From an uncultured Actinomycetota bacterium (GTDB lineage Bacteria; Actinomycetota; UBA4738; HRBIN12): DNA of 64,000 nt. Positions within the stretch are counted from its first letter, which is position 1. Each line of letters starts with the position of its first letter. Location of the stretch: NCBI GenBank assembly GCA_963788925.1, contig CAWBIH010000002.1:503752-567751 (forward strand). The letters run 5' to 3'. Under the pieces are notes generated by a model, which searched no databases, was not told the origin of the DNA, and saw only the letters and a list, made by a program, of their open reading frames with translations. The position numbers and the translations under genes are program-made. Below, one piece after another: positions 5,694 through 40,558 of this stretch.

Positions 5694-6326
5694 GAGCGCC
5701 CGCAGGTCCCGGATCACCCGATGCCCGTTGAGATCGGGCGTGCCGTCCCCTGACCGGTCGATCAGGAAGGTCTCGATCCCGAGAACGGCCGCGCCGTCGC
5801 AGTACGGCGGTTGATCGTCGACGAAGACGGATCGCTCGGGCGCGACGTCACCGAGCCGGCGTAGGGCTTCCCGATAGATCCCGGGGTCCGGTTTGTGGAT
5901 CCCCACTTCGAACGACAGAAGGACCTCGTCGAACTCTTCGTCGAGTCCCAGCCGGTCGACGATCGGCCGCGTCGAATGCGAGCAGTTGCTGATCAGCGCG
6001 GTCCTGGTGCCCCGCGCCCGAAGCTCTCGAACGACCGGAAGAGAATCCTCGTAGAGCTCGACACCCGTCTCGGTGAACGCGCGCTCCATGTCCAGGAGCC
6101 TCGCGACCAGCGCGGGATCCGGGTCGACCCCGGCTGCCTCGACGATCGCGGTCATGTCTCCCCGGGCGCTCTCGTACGTGCCGACGCCCCTCGCCGCTCT
6201 GGTCAGCTCGTACGCGCGGAAGAGATCCGCCTTGTTGACGCCGAGCTCGGCGGTGATGCGGTCGGAGAGCTGCCCCCAGTGGGTGCGGGCGATCGTGTCG
6301 TAGAGATCCAGCAGAACGGCATCCAC
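5676..6326 (-). CDS. HAD-superfamily hydrolase
   Basis: 216 aa. N-terminal LLDLYDTI (DxD-type motif I variant), motif II TALISN, distal VDD. Full-length ORF ending opposite the lipoprotein gene. Confidence 0.7.
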   Translation of the reverse strand: MDAVLLDLYDTIARTHWGQLSDRITAELGVNKADLFRAYELTRAARGVGTYESARGDMTAIVEAAGVDPDPALVARLLDMERAFTETGVELYEDSLPVVRELRARGTRTALISNCSHSTRPIVDRLGLDEEFDEVLLSFEVGIHKPDPGIYREALRRLGDVAPERSVFVDDQPPYCDGAAVLGIETFLIDRSGDGTPDLNGHRVIRDLRALLPVGA

Positions 6327-6348
6327 GCGACAAGGATAGGGCCGGAGC

Positions 6349-8382
6349 TCACTCGGCCCACAGGCCGGCGAGGAATGCGTCGACGTCCGCCGCAGCGGTG
6401 AAGGCTGCTCCGTCGTCCGGGACCGCCACGACCTGCGGCGCGATGACGTCGAAGTGTTCGAGGACCTCGTCCGGGAGGAATCGGGACCGCTGCGAATACG
6501 AATGCGGGTCCTCGAGTCCTCTCGGCCTGCGGTAGTAGCGCTGGGGATAGGTCACGTGGAGCGCGTCGCGCGCACGGGTGAGCGCCACGTAGAGCAGCCG
6601 CCGCTCTTCCTCGATCTCGTCGTCGTTTCCCGTCGACATGTCCGAGGGGATCATCCCGTCGGCCGCGTGGATGACGTGCACGACGTCCCACTCGAGGCCC
6701 TTCGCCGAATGGATCGTCGAGAGGATCAGGTAGTCCTCGTCCAGGTGGGGCGGGCCCGCGAGGTCGCCGGTCGACGAGGGTGGATCGAGCGTGAGATCGG
6801 CGAGGAACTGTCCTCGCGACCCGGCCTCGGAGGCGAGGAGCTCGAGCTGTTCGAGGTCGCGCACCCGCGATGCGGCCGCCTCGTACTTCCTCGCGATGAC
6901 GGGCTCGAGGAACGTCCTGAGCCGGGCGAGCTGGCCGGCGGGCGGGAGCACGTCGGCGTCGAGACAGTCGTCGAGCGCCGCGCGAAGGTCGCGGATGCCT
7001 TGCGCCGCGCCCTTCGGCACGGCGATCGGCTCCTCGAGGAACCTTGCGAGCGGTGACGCCGCGTCCGCGGCGTCACCGCGACGCACTCCGAGCTCGTCCA
7101 TGAGCCGCCGCGACGAGGCCGGGCCCATCCCGTCCAAGAGCTGCAGCACCCGGAACCAGCTGACCTCGTCGAAGGGGTTCTCCAGGATCCGCAGGCACGC
7201 GAGCGCGTCCTTCACGTGAGCGGCCTCCATGAACTTCAGGCCTCCGTACTTGATGAACGGGATGTTCCGGCGAGCGAGCTCGACCTCGAGGTGATCCGAG
7301 TGGTAGGCCGCGCGGAACAGGACCGCCTGCGCTTTCAGCGGGACGCCCTCCTCGCGATGTTCCAAGACCGCCCGGCAGACGGCGTCGCTCTGCTCGGCTT
7401 CATCGAGACACGCCCTCACGATCGGCCGTGAGTCGCCCGGCCGGGTCGGTTGAAGGGTCTTCTCGTGACGTTGCGGGCTGAGCGCGATCACCGCGTTCGA
7501 TGCCGCCAGGATCGGCGGTGTCGACCGGTAGTTCCGTTCGAGCTTGATCAAGGCCGCGCCCGGGAACCGGTCGGGGAACTCGAGGATGTTCTTCACGGTC
7601 GCGGCGCGGAACCCGTAGATCGCCTGCGCGTCGTCGCCGACGACGGTGAGGTTCCTCGGGCCGGCTGCAGGCCGCATCCCTTCGAGGATGTCGGCCTGCA
7701 ACGCGTTCGTGTCCTGGTACTCGTCGACGAGGATGTGCTCGAACATCGCGGCGAGCTGCTGAGAGGTTGCAGGTGAGGTGGCGAGCGCCTTCCAGAACAA
7801 CAACAGGTCGTCGTAGTCGAGGACGTGCTGCTGCCGCTTGCGTTCCGTGTAGGCGCGGAAGATCTCCCGGATCCCCTCGGCCTCCTCGAGGCACCACGGG
7901 TAATGGCGCTTCAGGACGTCGGCGAGCCGTTCACCCGCGTTCACGGTCCGCGAGTAGATCGCCGCGAGCGTGTCCTTGCGAGGGAATCGGCGCTCGCGGG
8001 CTGAGTATCCGAGCTCGTCGCGGAGCAGGTTCATCACGTCGGCGCCGTCGGCCTGGTCGAGGACGGTGAAGTCGGGGGTGAGGCCGAGCGCGCGACCATG
8101 GAGGCGGAGGAGCCGATTCCCGATCGCGTGGAACGTGCCGCCCCAGACGCGGCCGGTGTCGCTCGTGCCCAGGCGCGCCGCTCGTGAGACCATCTCGCGA
8201 GCGGCGCGCCTGCTGAACGTGAGGAGCAGGATGCGCTCCGGGCGCGTCCCTCGTTCGATGAGGGACGCGACACGCGCCGCCAACGTCATGGTCTTCCCGC
8301 TCCCGGCCCCGGCGACGATCAGCAGCGGCCCCTCGCCATGGCGAACGGCCGCCTGCTGCTCCGGATTCAGCTCCTCGAACAC
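6349..8382 (-). CDS. ATP-dependent DNA helicase, UvrD/PcrA/Rep family
   Basis: Walker A (AGAGSGKT) near the N-terminus and helicase motifs throughout. The ORF-track N-terminal 188 aa extension overlaps the CDGSH gene and is rejected; start is placed at the in-frame GTG (codon 8382-8380) just before FEELNPEQQ. Confidence 0.8.
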   Translation of the reverse strand: MFEELNPEQQAAVRHGEGPLLIVAGAGSGKTMTLAARVASLIERGTRPERILLLTFSRRAAREMVSRAARLGTSDTGRVWGGTFHAIGNRLLRLHGRALGLTPDFTVLDQADGADVMNLLRDELGYSARERRFPRKDTLAAIYSRTVNAGERLADVLKRHYPWCLEEAEGIREIFRAYTERKRQQHVLDYDDLLLFWKALATSPATSQQLAAMFEHILVDEYQDTNALQADILEGMRPAAGPRNLTVVGDDAQAIYGFRAATVKNILEFPDRFPGAALIKLERNYRSTPPILAASNAVIALSPQRHEKTLQPTRPGDSRPIVRACLDEAEQSDAVCRAVLEHREEGVPLKAQAVLFRAAYHSDHLEVELARRNIPFIKYGGLKFMEAAHVKDALACLRILENPFDEVSWFRVLQLLDGMGPASSRRLMDELGVRRGDAADAASPLARFLEEPIAVPKGAAQGIRDLRAALDDCLDADVLPPAGQLARLRTFLEPVIARKYEAAASRVRDLEQLELLASEAGSRGQFLADLTLDPPSSTGDLAGPPHLDEDYLILSTIHSAKGLEWDVVHVIHAADGMIPSDMSTGNDDEIEEERRLLYVALTRARDALHVTYPQRYYRRPRGLEDPHSYSQRSRFLPDEVLEHFDVIAPQVVAVPDDGAAFTAAADVDAFLAGLWAE

Positions 8383-9144: not shown

Positions 9145-9660
9145 TTAGGCCCGAACGAGCCCCAGCTCTTCGAGGAGTCCGGGCGGGATCGCGTGGCAGT
9201 ACGGCTCGTGCCCGTTGTTCAGGTAGTAGCGCTGGTGGTACTCCTCGGCCGGATAGAACGCGACGTGCGGACGGATCTCCGTCGCGATCGGCGTGGAGTA
9301 GCGGGCCTGCGCCCGATCGCGTGAGGCCTCGGCGGCCATCCGCTGCTCATCCGAGTGCGTGAGGACGATGCTCCGGTATTGCGACCCGCGATCCGGACCC
9401 TGGCGGTTCACCTGCGTCGGGTCGTGCATCGCCCAGAAGACCTCGAGCAGTTGGTCGAAGGAAACGACCTCGGGGTCGAACGTCACCTCGACGACCTCGG
9501 CGTGCCCGGTGGTGTCGCTGCAGACCTGTGCATACGTGGGGTTCTCGACGATCCCGCCGCTGTAGCCGGAGACGGCGTCGATCACACCGGGGACCCTGCG
9601 GAAGAGGTGCTCGACGCCCCAGAAGCAGCCGGCGCCGAAGGTTGCGGTCTCGGATGGCAT
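9145..9660 (-). CDS. msrA: peptide methionine sulfoxide reductase MsrA
   Basis: 171 aa with the MsrA active-site motif GCFWG near the N-terminus. Confidence 0.9.
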   Translation of the reverse strand: MPSETATFGAGCFWGVEHLFRRVPGVIDAVSGYSGGIVENPTYAQVCSDTTGHAEVVEVTFDPEVVSFDQLLEVFWAMHDPTQVNRQGPDRGSQYRSIVLTHSDEQRMAAEASRDRAQARYSTPIATEIRPHVAFYPAEEYHQRYYLNNGHEPYCHAIPPGLLEELGLVRA

Positions 9661-9853
9661 GTCGTTCTTCCTTTCCGAAAGAGTCGGTCATCCCATAGTG
9701 CCAGCCTTCGGCCCTTCCGTTGCACCGTCCCATCCCGCAGAAGTCGTAGTTCGCCCGGGGAAGCTCGAAATGGTCCTCTTCGCCGATACTCCCGTACGCG
9801 CGAGTACCCGATATCAGGTAGAGCAAGGGGAGAGGCACCGAGGAGGAGAGCAC

Positions 9854-19844: not shown

Positions 19845-21401
19845 GTGGAACAGCGCAGATCGACGCCTTCGCCCGCGACGGGCGAGCCGATCTTCCAGGC
19901 GATGCTCGACGCCGCCCCGGACGCCATGATCGGTGTGAATAGCGACGGCATCATCGTCATGGCGAACGCACAGACCGAGATCGTTTTTGGCTATCACCCC
20001 GACCAGCTGCTCGGTGAACCGATCGAGGTGTTGGTGCCGGACGATGTGAAGGACCTGCACCCGACCCATCGGTCGGAGTACTTCCGTGAGCCGAGGACGC
20101 GTCCGATGGGTGCGGGTCTCGCGTTGTCAGGCCGTCGTGCGGACGGCACCGAGTTCCCCGCGGAGATCAGCCTGAGCTCGATCCGAACGGATGACGGACC
20201 CGTCTCGCTCGCCGCGATCAGAGACATCACGGACCGTGTCGCGGCGGAGGACGAGACCCGCGAGGCCAGGGAAGAGGCGGATCGCGCGAACCAGGCGAAG
20301 AGTGATTTCCTCTCGCGCGTCAGTCACGAGCTCCGGACGCCGCTGAACTCGATCCTCGGATTCGCACAGCTGCTCGAGATGGAGAGGCTTCCGCAGGGAC
20401 AACATCGTTCGGTGCTGCAGATCCTGGAGGCCGGGGGACATCTGTTGGATCTCATCAACGAGATCCTCGAGATCGAGAAGATCGCCTCCGGCAGGATGAC
20501 GCTCTCGCTGGAGCCGGTCCATGTCGGGCTGGTCCTCGACGAGGCTCTGAAACTGGTTCGCCCCATCGCGGATCAGGACGGCGTCCACTTGATCGATCCC
20601 CCCCGATGAGTTCGAGATCTCCGTGCAGGCGGACCGCCAACGCCTGAAGCAAGTGCTCCTGAACCTGCTCTCCAACGCTGTCAAGTTCAATCGCGTCGGC
20701 GGGGATGTGCGTGTCTCCGGCCAGGTGACCTCGAAGGGGTCCTTCCGGGTCACCGTGACGGATACGGGCCGTGGGATCGCGCCCGAGATGATGGGGAACC
20801 TCTTCACCCCCTTCTCGCGACTTGGCGCCGAGCGCAGAGGGATCGAGGGGACCGGATTGGGTCTGTCTCTCTCGAAGAGCCTCGTGGAGACGATGTCGGG
20901 TTCGATCGAGGCGGAGAGCGTTCTCGGCGAAGGGAGCTCGTTCCGGATCGAGCTCCCGATCGCCGAGAGCGCGGAGGTCGAATCCGACAGACACCAAGCG
21001 CCGCGCCGCCGGACACGGGCGACGTCGGATCCAAGACCATCCTGTACATCGAGGACAACCTCGCCAACCTTCAGCTCGTCGAGGGGATCCTCGCCTATCG
21101 GCCGGAGGTCGTCGTGCTGTCCGCGATGCAGGGGAGCATCGGGATGGAGCTCGCGCGCCGGCATCAGCCGGATCTGATCCTCCTCGACCTCCACCTCCCG
21201 GACATGTCGGGTGAAGAGGTGTTCGAACGTCTGAAGGCGGACAAGGCGACGAGCGCGATCCCGATCGTGATCGTCAGCGCCGACGCCAGCGCGGAAACAC
21301 TCGGTCGTCTCCAGCAAGCGGGCGCGAGCTCGTTCATCACGAAGCCTCTGAACGTCGGGCACTTCCTGGAGACGATCGACGGGATGCTCGGTCAGGCTTG
21401 A
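19845..21401 (+). CDS. hybrid sensor histidine kinase (PAS - HisKA - HATPase_c - REC), interrupted by two frame changes
   Basis: PAS region, H-box SHELRTPLNSI, N/G boxes (LLNLLSNAVKFN, DTGRGI, GTGLGLSL), then a receiver domain (ILYIEDN...LLDLHLPDMSG...KP). Frame breaks at the C7 run 20598-20604 and in the GC-rich linker near 20960-21010. Confidence 0.65.
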
Positions 21402-21457
21402 TCGACACGTAGGGCGTCTCGCACGGATTCGATGAACCTGGTCGCGAACGGGGACGA

Positions 21458-21808
21458 GTGCTGGTCGAGCCACACGAGTCCGTATTCCACGACGGGGACC
21501 GGGTCCTCGACCCTCCGATGTGCGAGGCCGGGGATCCTCAGGGCTGCTTCAGCCCCCAAGCTCGCTGGTTGGACTTCGTGGTCTCCGAGCTCGAGGGTCG
21601 GGGACACACGCCGCTGGGAAAGTTGATCGGTTTCTGGGAGGTGATGGGCGAGTGGGCAGAGGGAGAGCAGTTCCGCGGCTGCCCGTATCTCAACACCCTG
21701 GTGGAGATCCGCGATCCGGATCACCCCGCCTATTCGGAGGTCAGCTCGTACATCGACGAGGTCGGAGACGTATCTGTCACGCACCGCTCTCGAAGCCGGG
21801 ATCCATGA
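21458..21808 (+). pseudogene. TetR-family regulator C-terminal-domain remnant (no HTH present)
   Basis: 116-aa ORF with TetR C-domain-like residues (FRGCPYLNTLVEIRDPDHP). There is no room for the N-terminal HTH between the receiver domain and this ORF. A LysR-like fragment reads on the opposite strand. Status uncertain. Confidence 0.3.
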
Positions 21809-22009
21809 TGGGCCTGCGGTGGGACGGCAATTGCGCGTCCTGGCCATGGGACGTGGCTCGCGATCGTGTTCGAGGCCTCAACCCGTCCCGTGGTGACAGC
21901 CCGCGCCATGGCCGTGGCGCTTCTCGCCGCCCGGCTGGAGACCACACCGGACGATGTCGAGCGCAGGGCCTTCGGGCGCTAGATCCTCCGCGTGTAGGAT
22001 TGAGGTTCG

Positions 22010-22083
22010 GCGCCCTTAGCTCAGTGGATCAGAGCGGCTGGCTACGGACCAGCAGGTCGGGGGTTCGAGTCCCTCAGGGCGCG
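22010..22083 (+). tRNA. tRNA-Arg (anticodon ACG)
   Basis: 74-nt cloverleaf. Acceptor GCGCCCT/AGGGCGC, D-stem GCTC/GAGC, anticodon stem GCTGG/CCAGC with loop CUACGGA, T-arm GGGGG-TTCGAGT-CCCTC. Confidence 0.8.
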
Positions 22084-22489
22084 CTTCCGAAGACAGGATC
22101 GTGAAGGATCGCTTCTAGTCGCGACTGAGTGCGTGTCGGTACGCAGGCGGCGCGTGGAGCCAGCAGACGGGAGAAGCGTTGTACGTGGAAAGGATCGTCT
22201 CGCATCCGATCTGTTCGCACATCCGTCCTCGAGCGGGACGGTCTGCCGCCTTCTTCCCGCGATCGGGCGGTCCGAACACTCGATCCTTGCGACTGACGCC
22301 CTCCACTCGGCCTCCCTGTTTCGTCGTGGATCATCGGATCCGAGGGGGCAGGGCGGGCGGGTGGTCTGCCGATGCCTCCGGTCGGTTGCCCGACGCGGCG
22401 GAGTTTCGATCGCTCGGGACCTCAACGATAGCACGGCGGCTCGACGGCCCGCTCGGTCGAGGAGCTGTGCACGCCCTGGAGAACCTCTG

Positions 22490-25400
22490 GTGAGCGCCGC
22501 CCCTCCGGTCGCGGCGGCCGCGTTCGCGCCGCTCGGTCTCCTCGAGCACAGGAGCGGTCGAGCGGTCGTCGGACGACCCACCGAGCTCGTCGCGATCGAG
22601 GACGGCATCGCCGGCGCCGAAGGAGGACGCCTGACGGCGGTGTCGGTCGAGGGCGAGCCGGGGATCGGGAAGACGCGTCTTCTCCTGGCGGCTCGGGAGA
22701 TCGCGGTCGCCCGCGGGTTCCTCACCGTGGCGGTGGGGGCCGACGAGGAGCTTCGTGGCCCCTTCCTGCTGGCACGATCGATCGTCGGTGCTCCCGAAGT
22801 GGCCGAGGCGGTCGCCGGCACCGCCTCGGAGCCGGCGATCGTCGCGGCCACCCAGGCGCTGGGTGGCCGCGACGACCCAGCGTTCGCCGGGCTGTCCTCG
22901 GACCAACGGCTCCTCCGTTCGTTCGACCTCGCGACGATGGCGGTCCGGGCGCTCACCAGCGAGCGGCCGCTCGCGCTGCTGATCGACGACATGCAATGGT
23001 CGGACGAGGACAGCCTCCGTCTCCTCCGCTACGTCATCCGGACGGAAGGCGCGAGCCCGATCTTCCTGATGTTCTCGATCCGCCCCGAGGAGGTCGCCAC
23101 GCTCACCGAGGCGGTCACGCTGCTCGCCGACATGGAGCGGATGCGCGTGATCCGGAGGCTGAAGCTCGCGCGCTTCTCGGTGCTCGAGACGTCGGAGTTC
23201 CTCCGCCAGGTGCTCGGCGGGCAGGTCGATGCCTCGACGGCTTCGACGATCCACGGCCAGGCGGAAGGTGTTCCCTTCATCGTGGAGGAGATCGGCCGGG
23301 CCTACCGCGAGGCGGGGATGCTGCAACAGATCGCGGATACCTGGACGTTGACGCGCAACGCCGAACGACTGGCGCCTTCTGCCGTGCGCACGTTGATCCA
23401 GCGCCGGGCGGCCCATCTTCCGATCGAGACCAAGACGGCGCTCGCCGAGGCAGCGCTCCTCGGTCGCCATTTCAGCTTGAAGGACCTTCGGGAGTTGCGG
23501 ATCCGGATCGGGGAGGGTGGGCAGGAGGACGATCTGGTCGCGCTCGGCGACCTGATGGCGCCCGCCGCCGCGGCGGGGCTGCTCGTGGAGCAGCCCGAGG
23601 CCGCGCCGGCGGACTACAGCTTCCCCCACGAGCAGGTCCGCGAGTTCGCGGCAGACACGCTGGCGCCGGCTCGCCGGCGCGAGATCCACGGGGCGATCGT
23701 CCAGCTTCTCCTGACCGGCGAGCCGGTGCCGGAGACGCTGCCGCTCCTCGCACACCACGCGCGCGCGGCCGGTGACGCGGAGGTGTGCGTTCGTTTCTCG
23801 ACCGAGGCGGCGTCCGCCGCACTCGCCGCCCACGCACCCGAGGAGGTCTTACGGGTCGTCGAGGTCGCGTTGCCGCAGGCGGCGACGCCGCAGGAGCGGC
23901 TCGGCCTGCTGACCGCGCGGGACGACGCCCTCGCGATGCTCAGGCGACCCGGCGATCGCTTGGAAGGACTCTCGGAGCTGGCCGCCCTGGCCGAGGCGCT
24001 CGGCGACCCTCACCTGGACCTGGATGTCACGCTCCGCCGCGCGGCCGCGCTTCGGCTCTCCCAGCAGGAGGACCGCGCGGCGGAGCTCGCGACCCGCGTG
24101 CGCGCGCTCGCGGTCGAGCGAGGCGATCGGGCCGCCGAGCTCGCCGCGTGCCTCGAGCTCGGCCAAGCGCTCCTCCACGCCGGGCTCGGCGAGGGGTTCA
24201 CCCCGTCGGCGGCAGAGCACGACCTCGACGCCGCCGAGGAGACCTACCTCCGAGCGGCCGCGCTCGCCGAGGAGCTCGGTGACACCTCGATGCTGGCCGC
24301 CTCGACCCGTGAGCTGGGTGTGATCGATCTGGGTCGGATCCGCGAGTGGTTCGTGGATCGGCTCGCGCTGGGGGAGCACATCCCTGTCATGACGCGGGTT
24401 GCGGCCGGCGAGTCTCTGGAGGCCATCATGGAAGACCTGCCGATCGCGCCCTGGGTGCGATCGTCAGGCGAGCGCCTCCATCGGTCGCTCGAGCTCTACG
24501 AAGAGCTCGGCGACCGGCAGGGGACGATGGCCTCGATCATCGCGATGGCCTATCTGAGCTGGGCGCCCGACATCCACATCGGCTCCGACTCGGCCCGCCA
24601 CATCGAAGAGATCCGGCGGCTCGCCTCGCAGCTCTCCTCGTTCACGAGCGAAAGCCAGCGGGCCTTCGCCGAGGTGCAGATGCTCTATGGCGTGCACGTA
24701 TTCGCCCGGGCGAAGGTCATCCCCGATCTGGCCCTCTCGCGCGGGGCAGAGGCGTATGAGCGGGCTCACTCGCTCGGCGACCGGCAGCTCGAGTTCCTCT
24801 CCGCCGGCGGGACCGCGCTCTCCTACGTGCAGCTCGGCGATCCGGACGAGGCGGCGACGTGGCTCGATCGGGCAGCGGCCGTGGCCGCGGAGAGCCCGAC
24901 TCCGTTCCGAGCGCGGCAGCTGGAGCAATGGCGTGGACTGTTGCACGCCGCTCGAGGAGACGTCGGCGGGATGCGTGAGCACCTCGAGCGTGCGGTGCGG
25001 ATGGCCGCCGAGCAGGCCCTGCCCGCGGTCCGCTGCGAGGTGCTCGCCGCGCTCGCCCTGGCATCGGCGACCCTCGGCAGGGAACAGAAGGACGACGAGT
25101 TGCTCGCGCTGGCCGAACGCTCTGCCAAAGAGGCGAAGGAACTGCTCGGGCTGCTTCCCGGACACGCCCCCTGGGGAGCCAAGGCCGACGCGGCGCTCGC
25201 GACGGTCGCCCTCGCGCGGGAGGAACCCGAACGTGCCGTCGAAGTCCGCCCGCGCGGCGGTGGAGGCGCTCACCGCCGCGCGGCACGAAGACCTGGACCT
25301 CGAGGTGCTCCTGCCCGTCACCGCGGCCATCACATCGGGAGGCACCGACGAGGAGCGGACGAGCATCCTGTCCTATCTGCAGCTCCAGACGGCCGTGATC

Positions 25401-25715
25401 GCGAACCGGATCGTCGACGAAGGCATACGCACTCGATGGTTCCGGGGCCCTGTCGGAAGCGCACTCGCGAGCCTCGCCTCGGATCCAGACGTACTGACGC
25501 GACACGCGCAGGATGGATCCGTCGAAGGGCTCGACGACGAGGACGCGAAGCTCCTCAAGCTCGTCGTCGAGGGGCTCTCGAACGAGGAGATCGCCGACCG
25601 TCTCGACGTCGAAACCGGCGAGGTGGCGCGTCGCCTCGCGTCGACGTACGCGAAGATCGGTGCCTCCTCACGCGCCGACGCCACCGCGTTCGCCTTCCAG
25701 TCGAGGATGCTGTGA
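22490..25715 (+). CDS. LuxR-family transcriptional regulator with N-terminal AAA ATPase (LAL / STAND type), one frame change near 25246
   Basis: Walker A GEPGIGKTRLL about 35 aa after the chosen GTG start, a long helical/TPR-like middle, and a C-terminal LuxR HTH (LLKLVVEGLSNEEIADRLDVETGEVARRLASTYAKIG) in the +1 frame after about 25246. The ORF-track N-terminal extension 22133-22489 is rejected. Confidence 0.75.
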
Positions 25716-25729
25716 CGGAGGGCGCCTAG

Positions 25730-26461
25730 ATGCTTCGAGCGAGGGTCGATCGGCCCCGGTGCATCGGCGCAGGCAACTGCATCACGATCGCCCCGACGGC
25801 GTTCGACTGGCATCGCGGCGACTTCGGGAAGGCGGCCGTCGTCGACGCGGCGAGCGTCGACGAGGAGAAGCTCCGGGAAGCCGCGCTCGCCTGTCCGACG
25901 CAGGCGGTCATCCTCGAGGAGGTCGCGGAGCTGCTCCCGTGGCAGCTCCGCGGCCGCTCGCCCACACAGCGTGTCCAACGAACCTTCATGTTCACCGACA
26001 TCGCCGGGTCCACGAACCTCCTCGAGGCGATGGGAGACGAGGCGTGGAATTCGCTCCTGTCCTGGCACGACAAGACCTTGCGCTCGTTGTTCGGCGCGAA
26101 CCGAGGCGAGGAAGTGGTGGCGACGGGCGACGGATTCTTCGTCGCGTTCGAGTCGCCCGACGACGCCCTCGCGTGTGCGGCTGCGATCCAGCGGGATCTC
26201 GCCGCGCACCGCGCGGCCGCCGGGTTCGCGCCTCAGGTGCGGATCGGGGTGCACGCATCGGACGCGACGATGGTCGGCCGGAACTTCACGGGGAAGGGCG
26301 TGCATGAGGCCGCCCGGATCGGAGCCCTCGCCGAAGGCGGGCAGATCGTCGCGAGCGCCGGAACGGCCGCCGGTGGGCAGTTCCCGACGCGGGATGCGCG
26401 GACGGTGACGGTCAAGGGCATCTCCGATCCGATCGAGGTCGTCACCGTCGACTGGCAGTAG
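25730..26461 (+). CDS. fusion of a single-cluster [3Fe-4S]-type ferredoxin domain and a class III adenylyl/guanylyl cyclase catalytic domain
   Basis: N-terminal 60 aa has the Cys pattern C-x5-C...C-P (CIGAGNCITIAP...ACPTQAV) of small actinobacterial ferredoxins. Residues about 80-240 have class III cyclase motifs (FMFTDIAGST, VATGDGFFVAF, RIGVHASDA, GKGVHEAARI). ATG sits 14 nt after the LAL stop with an RBS GACGGAGGG. Confidence 0.75.
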   Translation: MLRARVDRPRCIGAGNCITIAPTAFDWHRGDFGKAAVVDAASVDEEKLREAALACPTQAVILEEVAELLPWQLRGRSPTQRVQRTFMFTDIAGSTNLLEAMGDEAWNSLLSWHDKTLRSLFGANRGEEVVATGDGFFVAFESPDDALACAAAIQRDLAAHRAAAGFAPQVRIGVHASDATMVGRNFTGKGVHEAARIGALAEGGQIVASAGTAAGGQFPTRDARTVTVKGISDPIEVVTVDWQ

Positions 26462-26515
26462 TCGCCGACCCACCCCCCCGGAGGCGTCCCCGCAGCCTCC
26501 TATGCTGCGGGGATC

Positions 26516-27814
26516 GTGAGCGGATCACCCTCCTCCTTCCGCGAGCGCGTGGCGATCCTCAAGCCGCTCGCGGTCCGCGACTTCGCGTTCCTGTGGACCG
26601 GGATGACGGTTTCGATGATCGGGGACGGGATCTACCTCGTCTCGATCGCCTGGCAGGTCCTCTCGATCGAGAACCGGCCGGGCGCGCTGGCCCTGGTAGG
26701 CATCGCGTGGTCGCTGCCTCAGGTCGTCCTCGTGATCGCGAGCGGGGCATTGTCCGACCGGCTCGAGCGGCGGCACCTGATGATCGCGGGCGACGCGATC
26801 CGTTTCGTCGCGATCGGGACGCTGGGTTTCCTCTCCGTCACGGATCAACTGCACTCGATCCCGATCATCCTCGGGCTGGTCACGGTGTACGGCGCCGGGC
26901 AGGCCGTCTTCCAGCCCGCGTTCTCGTCGATCACACCTGCGATCGTGCCCGCGGATCTGCTCGTGCAGGCCAACTCCCTCGCGCAGCTCGTCAGACCGTT
27001 CGCGATGACGCTCGTCGGTCCACTCGTGGGTGGCGTGTTGATCGCCTGGGTGAGCGTCGGGTTCGCGTTCCTCGTCGACGCTTCCACGTTCGCGTTCTCA
27101 GCGGTGATGATCCTTTCGATGCGGACGCGGCGGACGCCGAGGGACGCGCAGGAGGAGCAGGCATCGTTCTTCGGGGACGTGGTGGAGGGCTTGCGCTACG
27201 TGCGACAGCAGCGATGGCTCTTGATCGCGATGGTCGGGGCGACCGTGAGCCTGCTGGCGGTCTGGGGACCCTGGGAGACCCTCGTTCCCATCGTGGTCAA
27301 GAACGACCTGGGCGGGGAATCGTCATCGCTCGGCCTCGTCTTCGGGGCCGGCGGCGTCGGCGCGGTGATCGCGGCCGCCGTGTTCGGCCAACGAGGAAGC
27401 CTTCCGCGCAAGCCCGTCACCGCGATGTACCTCGCCTGGGCGCTCGGGATGTTCGGGACGGCCGGCTTCGGGTTCGTCACCGCTGTCTGGCAGGCGATGG
27501 CGGTCGCGTTCGTCACCGAGGGGTCGATCACCTATCTCGTCGTCGTCTGGGTGACCCTGGTGCAACGGCTCGTCCCCGACCGGCTCCTCGGACGGGTCTT
27601 CGCGCTCGATTGGATGATCTCGACGATGGGTGTGCCCCTCTCGTTCGCCATCACCGGGCCCACCGCCGAGGCGATCGGCCACGACGCGACGCTGATCTGG
27701 GCGGGCGCCCTCGGCGGGACCATCACCATCGCGTTCATGTTCGTCCAAGGCGCTCGAGGGCCGGAGCGGGACGGCTCCCTCGCGAGGGCGGAGCCATCAG
27801 CCGAGGCTGCGTAG
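26516..27814 (+). CDS. MFS transporter
   Basis: 432 aa with about 12 predicted hydrophobic helices. MFS signature-like region (GALSDRLERRHLM). Confidence 0.8.
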   Translation: MSGSPSSFRERVAILKPLAVRDFAFLWTGMTVSMIGDGIYLVSIAWQVLSIENRPGALALVGIAWSLPQVVLVIASGALSDRLERRHLMIAGDAIRFVAIGTLGFLSVTDQLHSIPIILGLVTVYGAGQAVFQPAFSSITPAIVPADLLVQANSLAQLVRPFAMTLVGPLVGGVLIAWVSVGFAFLVDASTFAFSAVMILSMRTRRTPRDAQEEQASFFGDVVEGLRYVRQQRWLLIAMVGATVSLLAVWGPWETLVPIVVKNDLGGESSSLGLVFGAGGVGAVIAAAVFGQRGSLPRKPVTAMYLAWALGMFGTAGFGFVTAVWQAMAVAFVTEGSITYLVVVWVTLVQRLVPDRLLGRVFALDWMISTMGVPLSFAITGPTAEAIGHDATLIWAGALGGTITIAFMFVQGARGPERDGSLARAEPSAEAA

Positions 27815-33323: not shown

Positions 33324-33784
33324 CGTCGGAGTACGCCATCGACGACGAGCAGGTGATGCAGCTCGCGTTGGAGGAGGCCCGGCGATGCCTCGATCACGGC
33401 GATGTGCCGATCGGTGCCGTCGTGACTCGCGAAGGTGAGGTCCTCGCGGTCGCCGGGAACGAGCGGGAGATGGCGAACGATCCGACGGCCCACGCGGAGA
33501 TCCTCGCGCTGCGCGCCGCGGCCGCCGCCCTCGGGTCCTGGCACCTCGAGGGCTGCACGCTCATCGTCACCTTGGAGCCATGCGCGATGTGCGCCGGCGC
33601 CATCGTCCTCTCCCGGCTCGACCGGGTCGTGTTCGGGGCATCCGATCCCAAAGCGGGCTTCGCAGGATCGTTGGGGAACCTCGTGCAAGACCCGAGGCTG
33701 AACCACACCGTCATCCTGACCGACGGCGTGCTCGCCGAGGAGTGCGGGGACCTGTTGCGAACGTTCTTCCGGGAGCGGCGCTAG
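33314..33784 (+). CDS. tadA: tRNA-specific adenosine deaminase
   Basis: CDA-fold zinc motifs HAEILAL and TLEPCAMCAGAI. Start may instead be the internal ATG at 33356. Confidence 0.85.
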   Translation: MGLTSEYAIDDEQVMQLALEEARRCLDHGDVPIGAVVTREGEVLAVAGNEREMANDPTAHAEILALRAAAAALGSWHLEGCTLIVTLEPCAMCAGAIVLSRLDRVVFGASDPKAGFAGSLGNLVQDPRLNHTVILTDGVLAEECGDLLRTFFRERR

Positions 33785-34170
33785 CGCGCCAGCCGCTCGC
33801 GGATCGCGTCGTCGATACGGAGGGCGACCTCCGGCATCTCGCGGCGCATCGCCGCGAACGAAGCGGGGCTCATCACGGCCAGGGTGGTCGGTGTCGTGGT
33901 CACGACCGACGCGGTCCGACGCCCGTGCTCGATCAGCGCGATCTCTCCGAAGAAGTCACCGGGGCCCAACGTGGCGAGACGCTTCCCATCGTGGAGAACC
34001 TCGACCTCACCGCCCACGATCACGAAGAACTCGTGGGGCAGTCGGCCCTGATCGAGGAGATGCTTGCCCGTCGGCAAGTCGATCGAGTCCGCCCACCGCG
34101 CGATCTTCTCGCGGTCCTTGTGCGACAGACCTGCGAACAGGGGCACACGTTCCAGACTCTTCGCATCCAC
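33781..34170 (-). CDS. cyclic-nucleotide-binding domain protein (stand-alone cNMP-binding domain)
   Basis: CAP/PKA-type cNMP pocket (GDFFGEIALIEHGRRTASVV). Start placed at the GTG at 34170 with a GAGGAT RBS, because the ORF-track ATG overlaps the tRNA-Ser gene. Confidence 0.65.
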   Translation of the reverse strand: MDAKSLERVPLFAGLSHKDREKIARWADSIDLPTGKHLLDQGRLPHEFFVIVGGEVEVLHDGKRLATLGPGDFFGEIALIEHGRRTASVVTTTPTTLAVMSPASFAAMRREMPEVALRIDDAIRERLAR

Positions 34171-34231
34171 GTTCGTGGATCCTCGCACGATCGATCCGGA
34201 ACGTCGATCCGCCTCCGCTAGACTCGGCGAC

Positions 34232-34321
34232 GGAGGCGTGCCGGAGCGGACGAACGGGACCGCCTCGAAAGCGGTTAGGGGCCTAATCCGCCCCTCGCGT
34301 GTTCGAATCACGCCGCCTCCG
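34232..34321 (+). tRNA. tRNA-Ser (anticodon CGA), CCA encoded
   Basis: Acceptor GGAGGCG/CGCCTCC, anticodon loop CUCGAAA, long variable arm, T-loop TTCGAATC, 3' GCCA. TAGACT hexamer about 8 nt upstream. Confidence 0.85.
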
Positions 34322-34371
34322 CCATCGGGCGGGCCCTTCGATGGGCCCGCCCCAGTCGGTACCCTCCGTAG

Positions 34372-34948: not shown

Positions 34949-35036
34949 GGTGGCCTGCCCGAGCGGCCGAAGGGACACGCCTGGAAAGCGTGTAGGGGGG
35001 TTGACTCCCTCGAGGGTTCGAATCCCTCGGCCACCG
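34949..35036 (+). tRNA. tRNA-Ser (anticodon GGA)
   Basis: Acceptor GGTGGCC/GGCCACC, anticodon loop CUGGAAA, long variable arm, T-loop TTCGAATCC. TAGACT hexamer upstream. Confidence 0.85.
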
Positions 35037-35046
35037 CTCCCACCGC

Positions 35047-37840: not shown

Positions 37841-38106
37841 ACCGTGCTAGGCGGGGAGCTAGCGGTGCCCTGTACCCGCGATCCGCTTCAGCGGGGCTGA
37901 ATCCCCGCCCGAGGCCCGCGAGGTCCGAAGCGCCCCGGTACGAAGCGTCGAAGGTCGGGTCCCACGCGACGCCGGAACGCGAACCGGGTCAGGTCCGGAA
38001 GGAAGCAGCCCTAAGCGTGAACCGGCGGGTGCCGTGGGCCAGCCCGGCTGGAGCTCCGCTGCCGGGTAGCGGTCGAGTCTCGCGGCGTCGACGGCGGGTG
38101 CACGGT
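37841..38106 (+). ncRNA. ffs: signal recognition particle RNA, long (Bacillus-type) form with Alu domain
   Basis: Near-identity to the B. subtilis scRNA 5' Alu region (GUGCUA-GCGGGGAG-UAGCGGUGCCCUGUACC-GC-AUCCGCU). Universal domain-IV motif GUCAGGUCCGGAAGGAAGCAGCC at 37990-38012. The 3' end GGUGCACGGU is followed by a T5 run. TATACT -10 box about 10 nt upstream. Confidence 0.85.
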
Positions 38107-38142: not shown

Positions 38143-39960
38143 ATGGCGGACGACAGGCAGCACCAGGCGCTCTACCGGCGATATCGGCCACAGACGCCGA
38201 CCGAGGTCCTCGGTCAAGACCACGTCGTACGCGCGCTCACGGGCGCCATCCGGGACGGCCGCTTGCACCACGCATTCCTGTTCTGCGGGCCGCGGGGGAC
38301 CGGCAAGACGTCCACCGCGAGGATCCTCGCCAAGATGGTCAATTGCGCCACCGGGCCGACGGCCGAGCCGTGCGGCGGGTGCGATCAGTGCGTCGCCATC
38401 CGCGAGGGCACGCATCTGGATGTGGTGGAGATCGACGCCGCGTCGCACGGCGGGGTCGAAGACGCGAGAGAGCTCCGCGAGAAGGCACCCACGGCTCCGG
38501 TGCAAGGCCGAGAGAAGGTCTACATCATCGACGAGGCCCAGCGCCTGTCCCGTGAGGCGTTCGACGCGCTGCTGAAGGTCTTCGAAGAGCCGCCGCCCGG
38601 CGTCCGCTTCGTTCTCGCCACGACCGAGCCGCACAAGATGCCGGCCACGATCGTCGGCCGCTGCCAGCGGTTCGATTTCCGCCGGCACACCATGGAGGGC
38701 CTCTCCGAGCTCCTGCAGAAGGTGGCGGCGTCCGAGGGTGTGACGCTGGACGACTCCGCCGCGCACGCGATCGCGCGACACGCCGAGGGGTCCGCGCGAG
38801 ACGCGCTCTCGCTGCTGGATCAGGCCGGTGTGCTCGGCGGGCTGAAAGTGGACGATGCTGCGATCCAAGCGCTGCTCGGGGCGCCACGCGGCGAGGTGCA
38901 GGTGGAGCTTGCGGACGCGGTTGCCGTCGGCGACGCACGCAGCGCGTTCGAGATCGTCAATCGTCTGGTCCAAGACGGGCAGGACATCCGGAACGTGACC
39001 AACGAGACGCTCGGGCATTTCCGAGATCTGCTCCTCGTGAAGACGGCGCCGGGACAGGAGGACCTCCTGGACATCGCCGCGGACGCCTACGAAGGGCTGC
39101 GCATCCAGGCCGAGAAGTTCACGGCCTCCGAGTTGGCTCGGATCATCGAGCTGTTGTTGGCGGCCCAGAGCGACATGCGCTGGACGACGTCGCCGCGCCT
39201 CTCGTTGGAGCTCGCTCTCGTGCGGGCCACGATCCCCGAGACGGACCAGTCGCCCGCCGGAACGCTGGCACGGCTGGAGCGTCTCGAGAGGCTCGCCAAT
39301 GTCGACCCAGCGAGCGTGGTGCCCGACGCCACAGCCCATGTCGCCGCCGGGGCCGCCCACGTCGGGGACCCAACGCCGGCCGCCGAGCACCCGGCGCCTC
39401 CCGCCGTGGCCGCCTCGGTCGGAGACCCAACGCCGGCAGACGTACCTCGGGAGACACCTTCGGCCCCGACGCCTCCGCCCTCCGGCGTCGAGGTCTCCTC
39501 CGAGGCGGCCCCGGCGGGCGTTCCCTCAGCAGCGATCGAGGCGCCGCATGCGGCGAGCGCGGACAGCGTCGACGTCACGATGCTCCGCCGTTCGTGGCCG
39601 TCGTTGCTCGATCACCTCAGCGAGGTCGGGCAGCCGGTCCTCCGGGCGCTCCTGGAAAGCGCCACGCCGGCGACGTTCGACGGAGAGACTCTCGAGCTCG
39701 CCTTCCCTCCTTCGTTCCGCAACAACCTGCGGCAGGTGGCGAGTCGCGCCGACAAGTTGCAGGCGGCCCTCGGGGACCTCTTCGGGATCCGTCCCAGGAT
39801 CGAGAGCGTGACCCGCGAGGCGCACGCCGGCGCGACGGAGCCGGCCGCGACCGCGTTCGTCGAGGAGGCCGAGGAACCCACTGAAGAGGAAGCCCTGAAG
39901 CGTCTCAAGGACGTCTTGGGCGCCACGCCCGCCGACGAACCAGACGATCCCGAGGACTGA
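38143..39960 (+). CDS. dnaX: DNA polymerase III subunits gamma/tau
   Basis: AAA+ clamp-loader motifs (GPRGTGKTS, zinc module CGGCDQC, DEAQRLS, SRC-like region). Long Pro/Ala-rich tau linker. RBS AAGGAG. Confidence 0.9.
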
Positions 39961-39964
39961 TCCC

Positions 39965-40558
39965 GTGTACGAGGGTCCGATACAGGAGCTGATCGATGAG
40001 CTGGCGCGCCTGCCGGGCGTGGGTCCGAAGTCCGCGCAGCGCCTCGCGTTCTGGCTCGTGAAGGCGACCCCTGAGGACGCGAAGCGCCTGGCTGCCGCGG
40101 TCGTACAGGTGAAGGACCGGATCGCGTTCTGTCGCGAATGCGGGAACGTCGCGGAGGGAGATCTCTGCCGGGTCTGCCGCGACGAGTCTCGTGACCGCAC
40201 GTTGCTCTGTGTCGTGGAGGAACCGAAGGACGCCGCCACGATCGAGAAGGCGGCCTTGCACAAGGGCCGCTATCATATCCTCGGTGGGGCGATCAGCCCG
40301 CTCGACGGCATCGGACCGGACGATCTGCGGGTACAGGAGCTGCTGGATCGCGTCGATCGCGATCACGTCACCGAGGTGATCCTCGCGACCAACCCCAACC
40401 TCGAGGGCAACGCCACCGCGATGTACGTGGCCGCGCTCTTGAAGCCGCTCGGGATCCGCGTGACGAGGCTCGCGAGCGGCCTTCCGGTCGGCGGCGATCT
40501 CGAGTACGCGGACGAGGTCACGCTTTCACAGGCCATCGAGGGCCGGCGCGAGATCTAG
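39965..40558 (+). CDS. recR: recombination protein RecR
   Basis: 197 aa. HhH ([14 protein letters not shown]), C4 zinc finger (CRECGNV...CRVC) and Toprim domain. Confidence 0.9.

Follow-up and report, generated by a model that had tools for sequence, protein, structure and literature searches.

Class III nucleotidyl cyclases are coupled to sensors of light, heme, bicarbonate, pH, and lipids. An iron–sulfur (Fe-S) cluster as the direct input of a cyclase has so far been proposed from sequence alone, for a small proteobacterial group of membrane proteins (PMC4821796). Specifically, Beltz et al. (2016) used bioinformatics only to describe ~30 class IIIb cyclases that have a cytochrome-b-like anchor of six transmembrane segments and a ferredoxin directly N-terminal to the cyclase domain, implying a redox input (PMC4821796). 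In a second type of arrangement, exemplified by Rv0386 of Mycobacterium tuberculosis, a class III cyclase, a STAND-type ATPase, and a LuxR-type helix-turn-helix (HTH) domain are combined in one polypeptide with the cyclase at the N-terminus (PMC3938503). Here, we describe a locus on contig CAWBIH010000002.1 of an uncultured Actinomycetota bacterium (assembly GCA_963788925.1; the window analyzed is the whole stretch of 64,000 nucleotides at positions 503,752 to 567,751) in which a gene for a LAL-type STAND regulator is followed by a gene for a small ferredoxin-cyclase fusion protein (Fd-cyclase). The Fd-cyclase resembles the proteins of Beltz et al. in the position of its ferredoxin; however, the latter come from alpha- and beta-proteobacteria and sit in the membrane via a heme-binding anchor, while the Fd-cyclase is soluble, is found in Actinomycetota-type metagenome-assembled genomes (MAGs), and is paired with a LAL. 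No cytochrome-b-like anchor was found, the ferredoxin, a 21-aa linker, and the cyclase filling the 243 aa (based on the Pfam layout; no separate transmembrane prediction was made). The window has the same three activities as Rv0386, but its cyclase is encoded separately, after the HTH, and has a ferredoxin attached; moreover, the LAL starts directly with its AAA_16 domain (aa 26) and has no N-terminal cyclase, so the domain order of Rv0386 is not present. We found no characterized example of the LAL/Fd-cyclase pair in the literature and, in full-text searching, no description of a soluble ferredoxin-cyclase, the membrane group in PMC4821796 being the sole published combination. We rate the pair as a variation on sensor-coupled class III cyclases and Rv0386-type cyclase/ATPase/HTH proteins, for which we suggest a mechanism below. 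The features of the two genes are the following:

22490-25715, + strand: LAL-type STAND regulator gene, GTG start, 1074 aa after removal of the extra T at 25245
22565-23069, + strand: AAA_16 NTPase domain of the LAL with Walker A GEPGIGKT and Walker B LLIDD (aa 26-193; Pfam, E 2e-16)
25245, + strand: single extra T causing a frameshift (DNA alignments with relatives)
25551-25694, + strand: LuxR/GerE HTH of the LAL, in the frame of open reading frame (ORF) 24687-25715 (Pfam GerE, E 2.5e-7)
25717-25721, + strand: GGAGG, Shine-Dalgarno-like, 8 nt before the Fd-cyclase ATG and within the 14-nt gap
25730-26461, + strand: Fd-cyclase gene, 243 aa (Pfam, homologues, Protein Data Bank (PDB) matches)
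25745-25909, + strand: single-cluster ferredoxin domain (Pfam Fer4_13/Fer4_15)
25760-25762, 25769-25771, 25778-25780, and 25892-25897, + strand: predicted cluster residues C11, A14, C17, and C55-P56
25919-25981, + strand: interdomain linker, aa 64-84, with LLPWQLR at aa 68-74
25982-26458, + strand: class III nucleotidyl cyclase catalytic domain (Pfam, PDB alignments, AlphaFold2 model)

The 243-aa protein matched Fer4_13 (aa 6-60, E 3.5e-9), Fer4_15 (E 6e-7), and Guanylate_cyc (aa 85-230, E 6e-9) with scores that all exceed the curated Pfam cutoffs. GC at the third codon position is 0.89 in ORF 25730-26461, i.e. the codon-position GC of a real gene, in a window of ~68-70% GC throughout; codon-position GC and homologues also ruled out the antisense ORF at 25373-26473 (- strand) as a real gene. 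The LAL stop codon TGA (25713-25715) and the Fd-cyclase ATG at 25730, a start codon that is well supported by the sequence around it, are separated by 14 nt. Thus, the fusion and the spacing proposed in an initial annotation made from the sequence alone were recovered, as were the Cys pattern (C11-x5-C17...C55-P56) and the motifs FTDIAGST and ATGDGFF. The top match in NCBIfam was the cyclase part of LipJ/Rv1900c (E 2e-29), but its score is far under the full-length cutoff of that model and, therefore, no curated family covers the Fd-cyclase. In the PDB, the best solved relatives of aa 65-233 are Ma1120 of M. avium (E 1.8e-22) and Rv1900c of M. tuberculosis (E 4e-18), which are also the closest folds (template modeling (TM) score 0.85-0.92). 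The cyclase domain was modeled by AlphaFold2 with a predicted local distance difference test score (pLDDT) of ~90 and a Foldseek TM score of 0.92 to Ma1120 (4wpa). By sequence and modeled fold, the Fd-cyclase is a class III nucleotidyl cyclase; it differs from these two enzymes in its partner module, which is an alpha/beta-hydrolase in LipJ, a short N-terminal extension in Ma1120, and a ferredoxin here. For aa 3-64, the best PDB matches were to ferredoxins with a single cluster, namely those of T. maritima, D. africanus, and P. furiosus.

With a cutoff of E <= 0.001, a protein search returned 2580 proteins. The top 120 are nearly all 243-245 aa long and all but two have a Fer4 family domain together with Guanylate_cyc in precomputed Pfam assignments, documenting that this architecture is already in public databases as unnamed predictions; the source names are "class 3 adenylate cyclase" or just "ferredoxin". 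Because only a handful of cluster representatives at 50% identity cover the full length (P0121, P0123, and fragmentary or artefactual ones), the family is compact; the 90%-identity cluster containing P0001, which is 99% identical to the Fd-cyclase in the window, has 435 member sequences. To describe conservation, we used an alignment of 170 sequences, i.e. the window protein, 129 proteins, and 40 genomic loci, in which the lowest identity to the window protein is ~49%. Four apparent single-chain LuxR-Fd-cyclase fusions (P0124, P0125, P0133, and P0160) were treated as frameshift artefacts and not as evidence because all come from one European Nucleotide Archive assembly set with fragmented, error-like gene calls. 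Of note, apparent LuxR-Fd-cyclase single ORFs occur in L081, L082, and L083 (ERZ25039588, ERZ25039574, and ERZ25039562), where other genes on the contigs are fragmented, and these are probably indel errors. Separately, in P0122 (383 aa) the Fd-cyclase is cut at about residue 224 and followed by the N-terminus of a Pyr_redox_2/FAD oxidoreductase, which is either a real reductase fusion or an assembly artefact.

A genome scan with one genome per species identified 246 relatives, of which the best 80 were kept. These 80 are all uncultured MAGs, mostly with an Actinomycetota label and a few binned as Dehalococcoidia, Chloroflexia, Acidobacteriota, or Eisenbacteria. Among them, a LAL gene lies directly upstream and on the same strand in every locus with a full-length Fd-cyclase homologue (41/41), over a range of 66-96% identity for the Fd-cyclase and 53-95% for the LAL. 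LAL stop codons and Fd-cyclase start codons are -1 to 25 nt apart, with overlaps in the form of TAGTG among them. Downstream genes for an MFS protein, an aldo-keto reductase, IclR, and LeuCD are kept solely in a close clade (L001-L020), and the LAL/Fd-cyclase pairing persists where all other synteny is lost. Except for the recurrent small cyclic nucleotide (cNMP)-binding genes described below, no third gene was consistently found beside the pair in distant loci. The co-conservation and the short gaps strongly support that LAL and Fd-cyclase are co-transcribed, as had been suggested from the 14-nt spacing. A scan of 21400-27000 for promoters and terminators found none, which is uninformative at 70% GC, and an inverted repeat upstream of the LAL start (22431-22470) was rejected, not being kept in relatives. 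We note that many of the relatives L001-L018 have, ~25-75 nt before the LAL start (in the window ~22420-22465), the AT-containing motifs (G/C)ATA(G/A)CA and ATAATCG, which could be -10 elements in GC-rich surroundings; ATAATCG has diverged in the window. We also note that in L059 a cyclase-only paralogue (6005-6556; 53% identity over aa 62-243) lies just upstream of the LAL, which is thus placed between two cyclase genes.

The initial annotation had described the LAL as a protein of ~1075 aa with a Walker A motif and a C-terminal LuxR HTH; both motifs are present but not in a single ORF. The 3226 nt from 22490 to 25715 are not a multiple of three, and the frame of the AAA_16 domain (ORF 22133-25729) differs from that of the HTH (ORF 24687-25715); after ~25245 the former encodes Arg-rich nonsense until a TAG at 25727-25729 that abuts the Fd-cyclase ATG. 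In local DNA alignments, the extra T (GAAG-T-CCGC) is absent from L001, L002, L003, L005, L015, and L016, and it is also absent from the 95%-identical contig L085, so that all relatives compared (7/7) lack it. As a consequence of the extra T, the NTPase/sensor part in the window is cut off from the HTH. By contrast, relatives whose assemblies are unbroken (e.g. L002, L015, L016, L085, and L087-L089) have the HTH in frame, and intact orthologues with ORFs of 1075-1076 aa are present in L084, L085, and L087-L089. Among these, the short-read metagenome contigs L085 and L087-L089 encode an identical Fd-cyclase and an intact LAL of 1076 aa that ends 14 nt before its ATG. The Fd-cyclase protein of the window is also found on a contig of >1 Mb. 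Because several MAG loci with "MFD" isolate names have similar frame breaks in various genes, we judge that the extra T is fairly likely a consensus error rather than a real lesion. The region between NTPase and HTH is long and may be helical/TPR-like: Pfam found no TPR in aa 200-918, but the equivalent regions of the homologous fused proteins described next match TPR_12 and TPR_MalT. In a PDB search with the whole LAL, the HTH alone matched, specifically to the C-terminal domain of DosR/DevR.

The strongest argument for considering LAL and Fd-cyclase as one unit comes from single-chain relatives. The closest relatives of the cyclase domain have 50-63% identity, compared to ~32-37% for Rv1900c and Ma1120, and carry the cyclase at the C-terminus of larger proteins. 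Among 70 such close relatives, Pfam identified TPR_12 in 33, TPR_MalT in 20, AAA_16 in 12, BTAD in six, GerE in four, and NB-ARC in four, with FHA or protoglobin as single cases. Four cluster representatives of 1098-1187 aa (P0142, P0256, P0234, and P0201) have the architecture AAA_16-(TPR)-GerE-cyclase in one chain, i.e. their domain order is the gene order of LAL and Fd-cyclase. Their cyclases are of the same clade as the Fd-cyclase (50-57% identity) and share RTFMFTDI, WHD, and GDGFFVAF and, in three of the four, GVHEAARI or GVHVAARI; their NTPase regions and that of the window LAL are homologous as well (26-29% identity, best E 4e-26). Because only 13-36 aa separate HTH and cyclase in these proteins, the spacing is too short for a ferredoxin. 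Thus, they are one chain without ferredoxin while the window encodes two proteins with ferredoxin. We found no study of single-chain AAA_16-TPR-LuxR-cyclase proteins in the literature. In the logic of classical fusion evidence, gene order matching domain order argues that the products of the two genes act together. The best-supported reading is that the pair would represent a split LAL-cyclase, in which the chain was cut after the HTH and an Fe-S module was added.

Therefore, our working hypothesis, to which we assign a probability of roughly 55%, is that LAL and Fd-cyclase form a conserved two-gene signaling operon with an Fe-S-gated cyclase, split from the LAL-cyclase type. The first gene would encode a LAL-type STAND transcription factor with an AAA_16 NTPase, a helical sensor region, and a LuxR HTH; the second, translationally close-coupled gene would encode a soluble 243-aa cyclase with an N-terminal ferredoxin as its sole extra module. 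We suggest that the Fd-cyclase forms the usual head-to-tail homodimer and that the state of the cluster (oxidized/reduced or present/absent) would be relayed via the LLPWQLR linker to alter cyclase output. The product would probably be cyclic AMP (cAMP), perhaps with a relaxed base specificity as in non-canonical mycobacterial enzymes. Finally, small cNMP-binding proteins would read the signal, and the system would act together with the LAL in controlling transcription.

The predicted cluster motif of the Fd-cyclase is CxxAxxC(x)37CP (C11-I-G-A14-G-N-C17...C55-P56). In the alignment to solved ferredoxins, the place of A14 is taken by the second ligand Cys in the 4Fe proteins of T. maritima and D. 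africanus and by an Asp in that of P. furiosus, and the motif of [3Fe-4S] ferredoxins has been stated as CXXA/GXXC(X)nCP (PMC6237146). With Ala at the position of the fourth ligand, a [3Fe-4S] cluster is predicted, and we consider it most likely that the domain binds such a cluster. C11, C17, C55, and P56 are invariant (170/170) and A14 nearly so (169/170), and the linker L68-L-P-W-Q-L-R74 is kept at 98-100%. Neither a loss of the N-terminal Cys residues nor a loss of catalytic residues, the two findings that the initial annotation had named as speaking against it, was seen: the Cys residues are invariant in the 170 homologues, and the metal-binding Asp pair and the Arg of the cyclase are conserved. 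The initial annotation had also suggested redox or O2/NO sensing. Given the Ala at the fourth-ligand position, a [3Fe-4S] cluster would fit sensing of redox state or iron supply better than the O2/NO-labile switch of classical [4Fe-4S] sensors.

The ferredoxin domain is also related to the P450-partner ferredoxins of actinobacteria (Fdx/FdxE of M. tuberculosis, Fdx1-11 of M. marinum), which belong to the same Pfam families and have the same CXX?XXC(X)nCP motif; PDB matches to this group (8amq, 8amp, and 4id8) were weak. The latter are free-standing or P450-fused carriers, while the domain in the window is fused to a signaling enzyme with no P450 nearby; no P450 heme motif was found anywhere in the window, arguing against an ordinary P450-partner ferredoxin. 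More difficult to set aside, although still unlikely in our opinion, is that the ferredoxin does not sense but, as a docking or dimerization module or as an electron carrier, keeps the cyclase tethered to the LAL, with LAL oligomerization alone controlling the cyclase, which is presumably also the case in the single-chain relatives. The fused relatives show that this cyclase clade needs no ferredoxin, a split protein needs a means of finding its partner, and [3Fe-4S] ferredoxins of the Fer4_13/15 type are normally electron carriers (PMC6237146). Yet, the invariance of three Cys residues and the CP, with Ala at the fourth position, shows that the cluster as such is under selection, the linker leading to the cyclase is equally invariant, and no P450 or reductase partner is kept near the pair.

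We next consider the active site of the putative Fe-S-gated cyclase. When aligned to Ma1120 and Rv1900c, the Fd-cyclase has D90 and D134 at the sites of the metal-binding Asp pair and R196 at that of the transition-state Arg; the transition-state Asn is replaced by H192, for which Rv1900c also has a His, while V130 and N185 stand in place of the adenine-specifying Lys and Asp of Ma1120. Conservation is high for D90 (99%), D134 (98%), R171 (98%), N185 (97%), H192 (97%), and R196 (99%), and position 130, the substrate Lys site, varies (V 58%, T 27%, A 8%). Rv1900c, which has Asn/Asp/His at the substrate and transition-state sites and low adenylyl cyclase activity, resembles the Fd-cyclase in its His and in a non-Lys residue at the first substrate site. 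In Rv0386, the substrate pair is reportedly Gln/Asn, and this protein has a guanylyl cyclase side activity of ~20%. Ma1120 is also without the transition-state Asn but, in contrast to the Fd-cyclase, keeps the canonical substrate Lys/Asp (K101 and D157); with Ala at the Asn position it is active, and changing this Ala to Asn cut activity drastically (PMC4215837). Accordingly, the deviating residues of the Fd-cyclase do not predict inactivity. Under the residue rules for adenylyl and guanylyl cyclases (PMC4215837), neither the Lys/Asp pair for ATP nor the Glu/x pair for GTP was found (V/T/A at 130; N185), and because the substrate residues are non-canonical, ATP versus GTP is not readable from the sequence. 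Hence, of the cAMP signaling proposed in the initial annotation, the cyclase domain is retained, but cAMP itself was an assumption, which the residue alignment suggested at that time did not settle given the replacement of Lys/Asp by Val/Asn and of Asn by His; cAMP is a likely product but not established.

Genes for cNMP-binding proteins bear on the question of the product. The relevant features downstream and upstream of the pair are the following:

33781-34170, - strand: stand-alone cNMP-binding-domain protein, 130 aa (Pfam cNMP_binding, E 6.5e-17)
34232-34324 and 34949-35037: tRNA-Ser genes (CGA and GGA)
37842-38105: bacterial large signal recognition particle RNA (168 bits), just upstream of dnaX
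38143-39960 and 39899-40558: dnaX and recR
22010-22084: tRNA-Arg (ACG), ~400 nt upstream of the LAL start

The initial annotation had pointed out a cNMP-binding gene 7 kb downstream, and this gene is real. Because the tRNA-Ser at 34232-34324 overlaps the longer ORF 33781-34311 (- strand), the start must lie at or below 34231, and the GTG at 34170 fits, so the shorter version is right. Its link to the pair is loose, the gene being syntenic solely where the whole neighborhood is, i.e. in the close clade; nevertheless, its product may be a reader of the cyclase product. Different small cNMP-binding genes adjoin the pair in L023, L036, L038, and L047, i.e. in 4/22 distant loci, and also in L081. 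By a rough estimate, this exceeds chance if such genes are few per genome, and the recurrence lends support to a cyclic-nucleotide product. In L023, the cNMP-binding gene (9218-9679; Pfam E 4e-15) begins 4 nt after the Fd-cyclase stop, so that LAL, Fd-cyclase, and cNMP reader could form an operon of three genes. The other neighbors in the window are core chromosomal genes, including hemA, an FAD oxidoreductase gene, leuC/leuD, and genes for nicotinate phosphoribosyltransferase and a tadA-like deaminase, as well as dnaX and recR, with no sign of a mobile element, a biosynthetic cluster, or a defense island among them. Two ORFs upstream of the LAL were without Pfam match: one of 194 aa (21520-22104) overlaps the tRNA-Arg, at least part of it being probably spurious, and one of 448 aa (20127-21473, - strand) is kept at 45-62% identity in L001, L003, and L015.

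Two further explanations concern the cyclase itself. We consider it improbable that the domain, as a pseudo-enzyme of little or no activity, serves as a regulatory partner of the LAL, e.g. via nucleotide binding. Three of the six canonical catalytic/substrate residues are replaced, the cyclase of the fused relative P0256 is even without the catalytic Arg, and enzymes of the Rv1900c type are reportedly of low activity; on the other hand, the metal-binding Asp pair and the Arg are 98-99% conserved in the Fd-cyclase family, cNMP-binding genes recur beside the pair, the non-canonical Ma1120 is active (PMC4215837), and Rv1900c is among the functionally characterized cyclases of M. tuberculosis (PMC3938503). 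Slightly less probable still is an active cyclase with a product other than cAMP, i.e. cyclic GMP or a pyrimidine cyclic nucleotide as made by Pycsar-type cyclases, since the lack of both the adenylyl Lys-Asp pair and the guanylyl Glu-containing pair (rules in PMC4215837) and a weak PycC match in PADLOC (E 0.004) are set against the marginal nature of this match, the absence of a Pycsar effector or defense context, a LAL with no PADLOC match, core-gene neighbors, and adenylyl cyclases as closest solved relatives. PADLOC assigned no defense-system membership, and a Pycsar anti-phage system was rejected on the marginal PycC match, the lack of an adjacent effector, and the core-gene surroundings.

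Several observations weigh against a LAL/Fd-cyclase operon with an Fe-S-gated cyclase as proposed here. The LAL is frameshifted in the window and, if this is real, the unit is defective there. All carriers are uncultured MAGs, and some of the assemblies are error-rich. Neither the substrate Lys/Asp nor the transition-state Asn is kept and the Lys site is variable, making product and activity level uncertain, and [3Fe-4S] clusters are less typical sensors than O2/NO-labile [4Fe-4S] clusters. Finally, the ferredoxin domain was modeled poorly by AlphaFold2 (pLDDT 40-66) in a cofactor-free model from a shallow alignment, in which the linker also has a pLDDT <50; because of the low ferredoxin pLDDT, the model says nothing on the contact between ferredoxin and cyclase.

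Overall, we suggest that LAL and Fd-cyclase are probably one redox- or iron-sensing signaling unit in uncultured soil Actinomycetota. More tentatively, and with less confidence than for the operon itself, we speculate that the Fd-cyclase could be the first Fe-S-gated nucleotidyl cyclase, acting as a detachable output/sensor subunit of the LAL such that redox state or iron together with the LAL ligand would be converted into a cyclic nucleotide and transcription, and that such units would be widespread in these bacteria. Proteins of the Fd-cyclase family are small and soluble and abound in soil metagenomes, making them easy to express, and the family offers a simple test of Fe-S gating of a cyclase. 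Together with the fused relatives, the Fd-cyclase provides a route to how STAND/LAL regulators use cyclase output, which bears on the poorly understood proteins Rv0386, Rv1358, and Rv2488c of M. tuberculosis.

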